Source: Escherichia coli
GTDB taxonomy: Bacteria > Pseudomonadota > Gammaproteobacteria > Enterobacterales > Enterobacteriaceae
Assembly (NCBI RefSeq): GCF_003019035.1
Contig: NZ_CP027447.1
Direction: 5' to 3' (one strand)
DNA: 64,000 nucleotides
The first letter of the stretch is position 1, and each line of letters begins with the position of its first letter. The position numbers and the translations under genes were made by a program. Below the pieces are notes generated by a model. That model was not told the origin of the DNA and did not search any database. It saw only the letters and a program-made list of their open reading frames with translations. Below, piece after piece: positions 1-30,398 of this stretch.

Positions 1-564
1 GAACGAGCAAAGCAGGCACAAGTTCCAAAGCATGTTATTGATAAAGCAATTGATAAAGCCAAAGGCGGCGGAGATGAAACGTTCGTGCAGGGCCGTTATG
101 AAGGCTTTGGTCCTAATGGCTCAATGATTATCGCCGAGACCTTGACTTCAAATGTTAACCGTACGATTGCTAACGTTCGCACAATTTTCAATAAAAAAGG
201 CGGCAATATCGGAGCGGCAGGTTCTGTCAGCTATATGTTTGACAATACGGGTGTGATTGTATTTAAAGGAACAGACCCTGACCATATTTTTGAAATTTTA
301 CTTGAAGCTGAAGTTGATGTTCGTGATGTGACTGAAGAAGAAGGTAACATTGTTATTTATACCGAACCTACTGACCTTCATAAAGGAATCGCGGCTCTAA
401 AAGCAGCTGGAATCACTGAGTTCTCAACAACAGAATTAGAAATGATTGCTCAATCTGAAGTTGAGCTTTCCCCAGAAGATTTAGAAATCTTTGAAGGGCT
501 TGTTGATGCCCTTGAAGATGACGACGATGTACAAAAAGTTTATCATAACGTCGCAAATCTCTAA
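1..564 (+). CDS. yeeN: YebC/PmpR-family transcriptional regulator YeeN, 3' part (5' end lies before window start)
   Basis: Frame 1 is open from base 1 to the stop at 562-564; translation (…[33 protein letters not shown]…VYHNVANL) matches my memory of E. coli YeeN; conserved position upstream of asnW. Confidence 0.85.
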
Positions 565-576
565 TTATATTTTAAA

Positions 577-606
577 GAAATCTGTCTTTATGGCAGATTT
601 CTTTAA
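577..606 (+). terminator. Candidate rho-independent terminator after yeeN
   Basis: Inverted repeat gaaatctg…cagatttc followed by tttaatc just after the yeeN stop codon. Confidence 0.45.
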
Positions 607-910
607 TCTCATATGATTATTATAAAAATATAATGTTCAACTCGTCATATTGATTATAAAAAACCCCCATTCCCAGAGAAATAATATTTATTAAAATTCC
701 AGTTCTTCTTTTTCTGATTACAGAAGGAAAAGTGGCAATTACGCATAGTTTCCCGATAAAGACGCGATAGCGACATCCCGCATAAGGCATTTTTTCTTTA
801 TCTTTGTACGGTACTTCACGGAACGAAGTTTTTGACCCTGCGAATCGTGATGTCTGTTGGGGGGGCAATTTGCTCAATGAAGCATGAGACTCGATTAAGC
901 GCACGAAACA

Positions 911-953
911 CAGAAATCAAAAAACCCGGTCACTTTTTACAAGGTAACCGGGT
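911..953 (-). terminator. Candidate terminator downstream of asnW
   Basis: Stem acccggt…accgggt; on the minus strand it is followed by a T-tract (complement of aaaaa at 919-923). Confidence 0.4.
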
Positions 954-1014
954 AAAAATATTTTTTATTTTTTAACTGTCTTGAGACTCATAGAGATGTC
1001 TCAAGACTAAAATT

Positions 1015-1090
1015 TGGCTCCTCTGACTGGACTCGAACCAGTGACATACGGATTAACAGTCCGCCGTTCTACCGACTGAACTACAGAGGA
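1015..1090 (-). tRNA. asnW: tRNA-Asn (anticodon GUU)
   Basis: Reverse complement is tcctctgtagttcagtcggtagaacggcggactgttaatccgtatgtcactggttcgagtccagtcagaggagcca, identical to the two plus-strand copies; 76 nt with 3' CCA. Confidence 0.93.
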
Positions 1091-1190
1091 ATCGTGAGAA
1101 CGAGGCGAATATTAGCGACGCTCATCCACAATGTCAAAGCCTGTTTTTTAAATTTGAAATCGTTTGCTGAAATAATCTGCACTTTGTCGT

Positions 1191-2678
1191 TTATTCCGAC
1201 ACAACTGGCTTTTTTTCACACTTTTGCGGCTCAGGTCGAGGATATTTCCACAGCCAACGTCCAGTAACCATTCGCCAGTAAAACAGCACGGCCCGCACAG
1301 CCCAGTCGGCAAACATTCCCAACCAGACACCAACCACACCCCAGCCAAGCATGATTCCCAGCACATAACCGACTACAACCCGGCAACCCCACATGCTCAA
1401 CATAGAAACCCACATGGCGTAACGGGCATCACGAGCACCTTTAAATCCAGCGGGTAGCACCCATGAGGCGGACCAAATAGGCATAAATAAAGCATTTAGC
1501 CAAATCAGAATCACAACGACATGTTTAACCTGTGGATCCTGGGTGTAAAACGATGCCATAACCCCGGCAAAGGGAGCCGTTAGCCAGGCGATGGCCGTTA
1601 ATCCAAGAGTGGACAGCCAGAACACATGCCGCAACTGAATCTCTGCTTGCGCTATCTGCCCTACCCCCAACCTTCGGCCTGTAATGATCGTAGAAGCAGA
1701 GCCGAGCGCACTTCCGGGTAAGTTGATAAGAGCCGCAATTGAAAACGCGATAAAATTTCCGGCAATAACGCTGGTCCCCATCCCGGCAACGAACATTTGG
1801 GTTAATAACCGACCACTGGTAAATAACACTGATTCGACACTCGCTGGAATACCAATCCCCATGACTTCCCAGATAATGCTAAAATTCAGCGGTTTAAAAT
1901 AGCTCTTTAACGAAATCCTTAGCGCAGGATTAAAACCAATCGCCAGCACCCACAAAATTGCCACTGCGCCAATATAACGAGAAATGGTTAAACCCAACCC
2001 AGCCCCGACAAATCCCAGTCCCGGCCAGGAGAAAAGGCCGTAAATCAATATGCCGCTAATAATAATATTAAGAATATTCAGGCTACCGTTAATCAGTAGC
2101 GGTATTTTCGTATTCCCTGCACCACGAAGTGCCCCGCTACCAATCAAAGTGATGGCAGCTGCTGGATAACTGAGTACCGTCAGCTCCAGATAAGTCAACG
2201 CCAGTGCTTTAACTTCTGTCGTGGCATCACCCGCGACGAAATCAATAATTTGTTCGCCAAAATGATGAATAAGCGTTGCCAACAGTACGGCAAACAACGT
2301 CATGATCACCAATGACTGCCGCGTCGCCACCCTCGCTCGTCGTCGATCCCGCTTACCGAGACTAAATGCCACAACGACAGTAGTACCAAGATCGATAGCA
2401 GCAAAAAAAGCCATAATGACCATATTGAAGCTGTCCGCCAATCCCACGCCGGCCATCGCATCTTTTCCCAGCCAGCTGACCAGAAAAGTGCTCAGGACAC
2501 CCATCAACAGGACACAGGCGTTCTCCATGAAGATAGGAACAGCAAGCGGGGTTATCTCGCGCCAGAACAACACTTTGTAACTCTTGCGTTTGGCGTGCCA
2601 GCGAGTACCGTGAACAACCTGGCGTAAAGCAGAGGAGATATTCAAAGCCGACCTTAATTGCAGAAAGTGAAACCACAT
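1191..2678 (-). CDS. yeeO: MATE-family efflux transporter YeeO
   Basis: The 546-aa ORF (1191..2831) is multi-TM and MATE-like; the start is placed at the internal Met (MWFHFLQ…) to give the ~495-aa length I recall for K-12 YeeO. Start codon is uncertain. Confidence 0.8.
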   Translation of the reverse strand: MWFHFLQLRSALNISSALRQVVHGTRWHAKRKSYKVLFWREITPLAVPIFMENACVLLMGVLSTFLVSWLGKDAMAGVGLADSFNMVIMAFFAAIDLGTTVVVAFSLGKRDRRRARVATRQSLVIMTLFAVLLATLIHHFGEQIIDFVAGDATTEVKALALTYLELTVLSYPAAAITLIGSGALRGAGNTKIPLLINGSLNILNIIISGILIYGLFSWPGLGFVGAGLGLTISRYIGAVAILWVLAIGFNPALRISLKSYFKPLNFSIIWEVMGIGIPASVESVLFTSGRLLTQMFVAGMGTSVIAGNFIAFSIAALINLPGSALGSASTIITGRRLGVGQIAQAEIQLRHVFWLSTLGLTAIAWLTAPFAGVMASFYTQDPQVKHVVVILIWLNALFMPIWSASWVLPAGFKGARDARYAMWVSMLSMWGCRVVVGYVLGIMLGWGVVGVWLGMFADWAVRAVLFYWRMVTGRWLWKYPRPEPQKCEKKPVVSE

Positions 2679-29107: not shown

Positions 29108-29121
29108 GACGCCTCCATTAA

Positions 29122-29141
29122 TACTGTTTTTATATACAGTA
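29122..29141 (-). promoter_or_regulatory. LexA (SOS) box in the sbmC promoter
   Basis: TACTGTTTTTATATACAGTA (CTGT-N8-ACAG palindrome) overlapping the sbmC RBS region. Confidence 0.75.
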
Positions 29142-29225
29142 TAGTTGCAATATTAAAACCACAAGGAATGAGTGTTGATTATGCGAGCAGACTCGCACTC
29201 CTGCCAGTCTGCTGCAAAAGAAAGG

Positions 29226-30398
29226 TCAGGCCTTATGGTGGAAATAATCACTCAGGCGGGAAAACATGCTGCCTTCCCCGACAGATTCCAGGGTAACCAG
29301 CGGCCAGTGCGCCACCTGTTTATCACGGTCATAAAGTTCAATTTCCCCTACCCGCTGATGGGCGCTAATTGGCGCGGTGAGTTCTTTACCATCAAGGGTA
29401 TATTTGGCTTTGATATGTGGAATTTCGGCTTTCGGTAGCACCATCCAGAACTCTTGTTCCGTTCCCAGGGCGATATTTTCTTTATCGCCATACCAGATGC
29501 GTTCCGTTCCGACCTTTTTCCCACGGTGCAAAATTTGCACCGTAGTAAAGTTTTGTTGCCCCCAACGCAGTAATTTTCTTGCCTCTTCCTCACGACCTTT
29601 TGCACTGTCAGCCCCCATTACCACTGCAATGAGACGACGCTGCCCATCGACAGCCGAAGCAATGAGATTAAACCCGGCACCAGAAGTATGACCCGTTTTC
29701 AGGCCGTCAACATTCATGGTTTTATCCCACAATAACCCGTTACGGTTTTGCTGGGTGATACCGTTCCAGGTGAGGCTTTTCTCACTGTACATATGATAAA
29801 ACTCGGGCTCGCCGTGGATGATAGCGCGAGAAAGCACAGCTAAATCATAAGCCGAGCTATGCTGGCCAGGTGCATCCAGACCATGCACTGTTTCAAAATG
29901 CGTATCCTTGAGATGCAGCTTCTCGGCATAGTTGTTCATCATTTCAACAAACTGCCGTTGCCCACCGGCAATATAGTCAGCCAGTGCAACACAAGCGTCA
30001 TTTCCGGAATCCACAATTAAACCACGGCTTAAATCACGTACCGATACGCGATCGCCCTCTTTCAAAAACATCAGTGAAGAACCGACAAACACCGGATTAT
30101 CTTTCGCCCACGCATCACGCCCCACGGTGACAATATCGTCTGGCGTAATGCGATGACTATCGATAGCGCGATCCACAACATAGCCCGTCATCAGCTTTGT
30201 CAGGCTGGCGGGATTGCGCTGTTGATGCTCATTACCCGCGGTGAGAATCTGACCGGTGGTGTAATCCATCAATACCCAGGACCCGGCATGAATCTCTGGA
30301 GGCTGAGGTGAAAAAGGAATGTTTTCCGCCGCAAAACCAGACGATAAATTAAAAACGAACAAAGAAGCAGCAATAATAAGACGGCGTTTCAACAGCAA
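29226..30398 (-). CDS. dacD: D-alanyl-D-alanine carboxypeptidase DacD (PBP6b)
   Basis: 390-aa ORF with signal peptide and SxxK motif (…PASLTKLMT…). Confidence 0.9.
   Translation of the reverse strand: MLLKRRLIIAASLFVFNLSSGFAAENIPFSPQPPEIHAGSWVLMDYTTGQILTAGNEHQQRNPASLTKLMTGYVVDRAIDSHRITPDDIVTVGRDAWAKDNPVFVGSSLMFLKEGDRVSVRDLSRGLIVDSGNDACVALADYIAGGQRQFVEMMNNYAEKLHLKDTHFETVHGLDAPGQHSSAYDLAVLSRAIIHGEPEFYHMYSEKSLTWNGITQQNRNGLLWDKTMNVDGLKTGHTSGAGFNLIASAVDGQRRLIAVVMGADSAKGREEEARKLLRWGQQNFTTVQILHRGKKVGTERIWYGDKENIALGTEQEFWMVLPKAEIPHIKAKYTLDGKELTAPISAHQRVGEIELYDRDKQVAHWPLVTLESVGEGSMFSRLSDYFHHKA

Follow-up and report, generated by a model that had tools for sequence, protein, structure and literature searches.

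The palindrome at positions 29122 to 29141 of the window (the whole 64,000-nucleotide stretch of DNA that was analysed) is real, strongly conserved and part of ordinary biology: it is the already known SOS box of sbmC. It very probably serves as the LexA operator of this gene, most likely acting by promoter occlusion that would be relieved by LexA cleavage after DNA damage.

The LexA box and the gene behind it

On the + strand, the 20-mer TACTGTTTTTATATACAGTA is present as a single copy in the 64 kb, exactly at the coordinates given in an initial annotation of this DNA, and it has no match in 100 dinucleotide-preserving shuffles. In gene orientation (TACTGTATATAAAAACAGTA), the box consists of perfect arms around an AT-only spacer, with CTG and CAG 10 bp apart, and fits TACTG(TA)5CAGTA. 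No other TACTG-N10-CAGTA and no other CTGT-N8-ACAG is found in the window.

A scan with a LexA position weight matrix (PWM), as suggested in the initial annotation, was run with a symmetrised matrix built from 17 E. coli sites (PMC3009722, Table 4), sbmC itself being excluded. The box is the top site by far. It scores 27.2 bits out of a maximum of 30.2, inside the range of the validated training sites (12.4-27.3 bits), and still 26.5 bits when the identical umuD site is also removed from the training set. With a uniform background, it exceeds 16 of the 17 training sites. The second-best position in the window reaches 9.6 bits, below the weakest training site, and the highest score over 30 shuffled 64-kb sequences is 18.4. 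By this matrix the window holds one LexA-grade site only, and the description of the palindrome as a canonical LexA box is borne out.

The gene behind the box is sbmC. Its product matches the NCBIfam SbmC equivalog model NF007451 with 300.6 bits (cutoff 179) over the full length (1-157 of 157) and is 96% identical to the SbmC of a record labelled DH5alpha. The sbmC annotation is carried by RefSeq E. coli genomes, including the identical strain SCU-301, and the gene order in these genomes is sbcB / dacD-sbmC-yeeA-tmaR. The window is assigned to this species because its 701-nt locus has a match in 5,418 of the 5,426 complete E. coli genomes; the exact 83-nt allele of the window is found in 695 of 5,112 matching genomes. 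Both lexA and recA lie outside the 64-kb window.

In gene orientation the elements are arranged as ...CCTTGTGGTTTTAATATTGCAACTA-TACTGTATATAAAAACAGTA-TTAAT-GGAGG-CGTC-ATG, with TTAAT at 29121-29117, GGAGG at 29116-29112 and the ATG at 29107-29105. The gap between box and ATG is 14 nt, in agreement with the "about 15 bp" first estimated. A start codon reassigned upstream, which would have moved the box into coding sequence, was looked for: going upstream from the ATG, a stop is reached before any in-frame start, and in 91 of 92 species the ATG lies exactly 150 nt before the YYDNP motif of the protein. The ATG is secure. The 118-bp region between dacD and sbmC contains the sbmC promoter together with the operator. 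Its features are listed in Table 1.

Table 1. Features of the dacD-sbmC region in window coordinates
Feature	Position	Strand	Basis or remark
sbmC (gyrI), DNA gyrase inhibitor, 157 aa	28634..29107	-	ORF, NCBIfam NF007451, RefSeq
Shine-Dalgarno GGAGG	29112..29116	-	5 nt 3' of the box, 4 nt before the ATG
LexA operator (SOS box) of sbmC	29122..29141	-	gene orientation TACTGTATATAAAAACAGTA
Half-sites of the box, gene orientation	CTG 29139-29137; CAG 29126-29124
UV-induced sbmC transcript 5' end, approximate	29126..29140 (~29133 +/- 7 nt)	-	K-12 tiling array
Candidate -10 TATACT (preceded by C at 29144, CTATACT)	29138..29143	-	predicted from the sequence
5'-RACE end, -45 in uninduced K-12	29152	-	PMC2760140 Table S1, entry B2009_1
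Candidate -35 TTGTGG	29159..29164	-	15 nt upstream of TATACT; predicted
CATAAT element	29178..29183	-	42 nt upstream of box start; scan, conservation
Stem-loop just 3' of the dacD stop	29182..29216	-	RNA fold -22.9 kcal/mol, z = -2.7
dacD (PBP6b)	29226..30392	-	upstream same-strand gene; ORF, RefSeq annotation mapped from SCU-301

The operator in K-12 and in other Enterobacteriaceae

Comparison with the K-12 sbmC promoter, also proposed beforehand, shows that the box of MG1655 is identical to that of the window at 20 of 20 bases. MG1655 also shares the 14-nt distance to the ATG, the Shine-Dalgarno sequence (SD) and the dacD-sbmC-yeeA context, and its published sbmC motif, TATACTGTATATAAAAACAGTATCA, contains the 20-mer of the window (PMC3009722). 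The flanks differ slightly: MG1655 has C for the T of the window 3 nt after the box, and T for A in the -35/-10 spacer. The DH5alpha-labelled record (NZ_CP026085.1) was rejected as a K-12 reference in favour of MG1655. Across sbcB-dacD-sbmC-yeeA the two disagree at 32 of 3,702 positions, more than expected for two K-12 derivatives, and the DH5alpha-labelled record either carries a non-K-12 segment or is mislabelled.

The same 20-mer, TACTGTATATAAAAACAGTA, is printed for umuD in the K-12 umuDC operator (PMC3009722). The two sites differ in their flanks (AC..TAA for umuD, TA..TTA for sbmC) and in gene and promoter context. Their heterology indices (HI), 2.1 for umuD and 2.8 for sbmC, are among the lowest, i.e., the tightest predicted LexA sites. 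Induction of sbmC by AZT is more modest (5.7-fold, compared to 56-fold for umuD), and sbmC, unlike umuD, shows a biphasic response that possibly involves an alternative sigma factor.

Within E. coli, a G at box position 20 is present in the DH5alpha-labelled record, strain 64.1, HS and SCPM-O-B-8794. In strain HS it is part of a symmetric C1/G20 pair (CACTG...CAGTG), which several Citrobacter and E. whittamii share. With these natural alleles, the PWM score drops from 28.0 to 25.7 (G20) and 23.4 bits (C1/G20).

For a wider comparison, a DNA-pattern scan was anchored on the coding motif YYDNP...PAEKL, invariant in SbmC of E. coli, Salmonella and Klebsiella, so that the box was not presupposed. 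The scan returned 97 loci, 92 of them usable (Enterobacteriaceae species), and a box was counted when it scored at least as high as the weakest training site (12.4 bits). In 81 of the 92 species such a box precedes the sbmC ATG by 13-25 nt; among control 200-nt windows from the same loci, 3 of 3,418 reach this score. The right half-site, CAG, is present in all 81 species. The left one varies: 35 species have CTG (among them Escherichia, Citrobacter, Kluyvera, Atlantibacter and Kosakonia), 33 have GTG (Enterobacter, Lelliottia, Leclercia and most Buttiauxella), 11 have ATG (for the most part the Klebsiella/Raoultella/Pluralibacter group) and two have TTG. The 46 species with a left half-site other than CTG (loci L019-L109) include Enterobacter hormaechei (L093), K. 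oxytoca (L033) and Buttiauxella agrestis (L035).

The sbmC gene of Salmonella enterica resembles that of E. coli: a single box overlaps TATACT in an sbmC-yeeA-tmaR context, and the gene is SOS-induced. The Salmonella box, TACTGTATATACATACAGCA, lies exactly 21 nt from the ATG (14 nt in E. coli), in agreement with the published distance of 21 for the single box of this gene; the published SOS induction is 3.55-fold. The Salmonella promoter elements are TTGTGA-17-TATACT, with a spacer of 17 nt instead of the 15 nt of E. coli. The heterology index is 6.32 in Salmonella and 2.8 in E. coli, the two values coming from different papers.

Some loci of the survey are unusual. In Escherichia sp. MOD1-EC7003, sbmC is truncated (83 aa) and lacks a box, and in L. 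adecarboxylata NCTC13032 the 5' end of sbmC is apparently disrupted, the box lying 119 nt before the first usable ATG. Two loci (L019 and L042) carry a further very strong LexA-like box in a flank (24.4 and 28.1 bits), which presumably belongs to other SOS genes. Three loci come from sequences deposited as plasmids: CP075030.1 (L010; Salmonella, 302 kb) and NZ_CP129873.1 (L011 and L013; Klebsiella, 727 kb). Both sequences show the chromosomal sbmC-yeeA-tmaR synteny, with sbcB and dacD also upstream in the Klebsiella one, and they probably represent pieces of a chromosome or chimeric assemblies; here they served as a source of orthologous sequence. GyrI-like genes carried by Klebsiella plasmids (29% identity) were rejected as orthologues; a LexA box is absent within 1 kb of them, 3.3 being the highest score.

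Operator, promoter and transcript 5' ends

The box lies in the intergenic region and overlaps both the -10-like TATACT and the approximate 5' end of the induced transcript, as expected of a LexA operator. The last four bases of TATACT are box positions 1-4. For the transcript, the position 100 nt upstream of the UV-induced start is given at AGGCCTGACC in Table 8 of PMC3009722, which corresponds to window 29233, and the intergenic resolution of that tiling array is about 7 nt. The 5' end mapped in this way falls within the box; with a start at 29131, the operator would span -10 to +10. A simple sigma-70 scan of the sbmC strand does not call TTGTGG-15-TATACT because of the 15-nt spacer. Its sole call on this strand is CTGGCA-18-CATAAT.

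The arrangement is found across genera, a -10-like hexamer overlapping or abutting the left edge of the box. In 53 of the 81 species, the 2 nt before the box and box positions 1-4 together form a hexamer of the type TAnnnT (TATACT in 17, TACACT in 11, TATAGT in 20). The Klebsiella group has instead an extended -10 (TGnTAnATT) directly upstream. In 50 of the 81 species, a TTGnnn precedes the hexamer at a distance of 14-18 nt. For the -35/-10 spacer, 15 nt were counted in E. coli, against 16 (E. albertii), 17 (Citrobacter, Salmonella) and 18 (Enterobacter) elsewhere. In the Enterobacter group, the C-to-G change in the left half-site turns the overlapping -10 from TATACT into the stronger TATAGT. 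Since the bases are shared, operator and -10 functions would trade off, and judging from the sequences the change may reflect a balance between promoter strength and LexA affinity.

A different 5' end was obtained by 5'-RACE in uninduced K-12, at -45 (window 29152), 11 nt upstream of the box. With this end as the start, the operator would lie in the leader at about +12 to +31, and bound LexA would block promoter escape or elongation as a roadblock. This alternative is considered unlikely. The conserved CATAAT with CTGGCA 18 nt upstream could drive such an upstream promoter, and the two were proposed as promoter elements by PATSER (PMC2760140); moreover, the group II intron described below, which two Klebsiella species carry between box positions 19 and 20 in the sense direction, is compatible with a transcribed point. 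However, no plausible -10 is present ahead of 29152, where TTGTGG occupies -12 to -7, and CATAAT ends 26 nt upstream of the RACE end. The RACE was performed on uninduced cells, 5'-triphosphate ends were not determined, and the poly-A tailing is ambiguous in homopolymer runs (PMC2760140), which concerns the local T-run. The UV-induced 5' end, on the contrary, maps within the box, at whose edge TAnnnT is conserved. The RACE end at -45 could have arisen by processing or could mark a minor, upstream start. Under either occlusion or roadblock, the site acts on transcription.

In 48 of the 81 species, CATA[AT]T precedes the box by 42-45 nt. In the window, CATAAT overlaps the 3' arm of the dacD stem-loop (29182-29216); this stem-loop has no U-tract, and the scan for intrinsic terminators made no call there. 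The conserved CATAAT may serve as a second promoter, as some other regulatory element or as part of a terminator; taken together with the stem-loop, it makes a second promoter or read-through conceivable.

An action of the palindrome on translation, by an RNA hairpin beside the ribosome-binding site or by overlap with the initiation region, is very improbable. The box does end only 5 nt before the SD, and a start at -45 would put the whole palindrome in the mRNA, where it could pair. The predicted hairpin (-8.4 kcal/mol, z = -1.24) is, however, not better than those of shuffled sequences and leaves the SD unpaired, and a leader starting in the box is essentially unstructured (-0.3 kcal/mol). 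No Rfam family matches, and the conservation follows the LexA half-sites, with their invariant CAG, and not stem covariation. The title of the initial annotation had the box overlapping the sbmC translation initiation region, and this wording has to be corrected: the box is 5 nt away from the SD and 14 nt from the ATG, and in none of the 81 species does it overlap the SD-like tetramer, the gap being 3-15 nt throughout. Only in a loose sense, with a ribosome footprint of about -20 to +15, are the final box bases inside the region; the SD and the ATG themselves are not physically overlapped.

Least credible of all is a chance AT-rich palindrome or a + strand promoter antisense to dacD: although AT-rich intergenic DNA yields -10-like strings and the scan gives TTAATA-16-TATAGT on the + strand at 29118-29145, a chance origin is refuted by the shuffles (no match, the best of them scoring about 9 bits below the box with the PWM), by the positional conservation relative to the control windows and by the published LexA-dependent induction of the downstream gene, and the + strand match, directed towards the 3' end of dacD, is the palindrome's own mirror image and most probably a side effect of it.

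Because the box overlaps the -10-like hexamer as well as the induced 5' end, repression is most likely transcriptional and exerted by promoter occlusion; this mechanism and the exact promoter elements are what we infer here. In the undamaged cell, a LexA dimer would bind CTG-N10-CAG of the operator; LexA is reported to bind the sbmC box. The promoter-distal end of the operator shares four bases with TATACT, and the site would extend from about -10 to +10 of the likely start, so that bound LexA would keep RNA polymerase from forming the open complex. After DNA damage, RecA-stimulated self-cleavage of LexA would free the promoter and sbmC would be transcribed. The CTATACT-type -10 is typical of sigma-S promoters. 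Together with the 15-nt spacer and the weak -35, it is consistent with the reported stationary-phase RpoS dependence of sbmC; regulation in stationary phase, by RpoS and by H-NS is stated in the titles of cited works.

SOS control and insertions into the operator

In K-12, sbmC tops the list of UV-induced genes carrying an SOS motif (PMC3009722). Its induction by AZT is 9.5-fold dependent on cleavable LexA, and its box has an HI of 2.8. In a reporter study the response was biphasic, and an alternative sigma factor was suspected. For the strain of the window, LexA-dependent induction is expected by analogy with K-12, which has the identical operator. The literature search returned no open paper with LexA-binding data (footprint, gel shift or ChIP) at sbmC. 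SOS induction of the gyrase inhibitor had been announced as expected biology, and it is: with the same operator, the K-12 gene is induced by UV and AZT in a manner dependent on LexA cleavage. The induction of SbmC/GyrI has been in the literature since 1995, and the site, identical to that of K-12, is already known.

Within the window itself nothing is novel. The value of the site lies in calibration, as a first-pass reading of the raw sequence recovered a textbook regulatory motif together with its target gene. Its intended use as a positive control is justified, the motif being genuine, at the right coordinates and in front of the right gene. What the analysis usefully adds is a more precise placement: the target of the operator is the promoter (-10 and transcription start) and not the ribosome-binding site.

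In other genomes, mobile elements were observed inside the operator. In E. coli E47 (L008; 171-184 and 1490-1516), the ISL3-family element ISKox3 is inserted in the sbmC LexA operator. Its target duplication is the 8-bp ATATAAAA, which is the AT-rich operator core; the insertion parts CTG from CAG and cuts sbmC off from its promoter. At a query coverage of at least 80%, 106 of the 5,426 complete E. coli genomes contain the ISKox3 junction. In the EcN/Nissle record NZ_CM187577.1 (L007; 1530-2180), the operator is cut at the same point as in E47 (...TACTGTATATAAAA/GGGTCTTCCCC..., the slash marking the cut). The cut is followed by a gene of the ClbS/DfsB family of four-helix-bundle proteins and by an ISEc53 (ISL3-like) transposase, and sbmC is not adjacent. 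This insert could be an ISL3 element that carries a colibactin-resistance-like gene as its passenger.

The other insertion is a group II intron (ltrA; Rfam RF02005, 186.6 bits), located between box positions 19 and 20 in sbmC orientation. One and the same intron is found in K. pneumoniae NZ_CP129873.1 (L013, ~550-2465, minus strand) and in K. michiganensis DSM 25444 (L067), with the junctions ...CATACAGT/GTGCGCC...CCGCGAC/A(A/T)TTTATC. This suggests site-specific homing into the edge of the sbmC leader and operator.

From the half-sites and insertions taken together, it is conceivable, if doubtful, that sbmC is partly free of LexA control in the GTG and ATG lineages and that the operator is a preferred target of mobile elements. 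If true, insertion of an ISL3 element or of the intron could rewire the SOS control of sbmC, a modulator of quinolone and microcin susceptibility.
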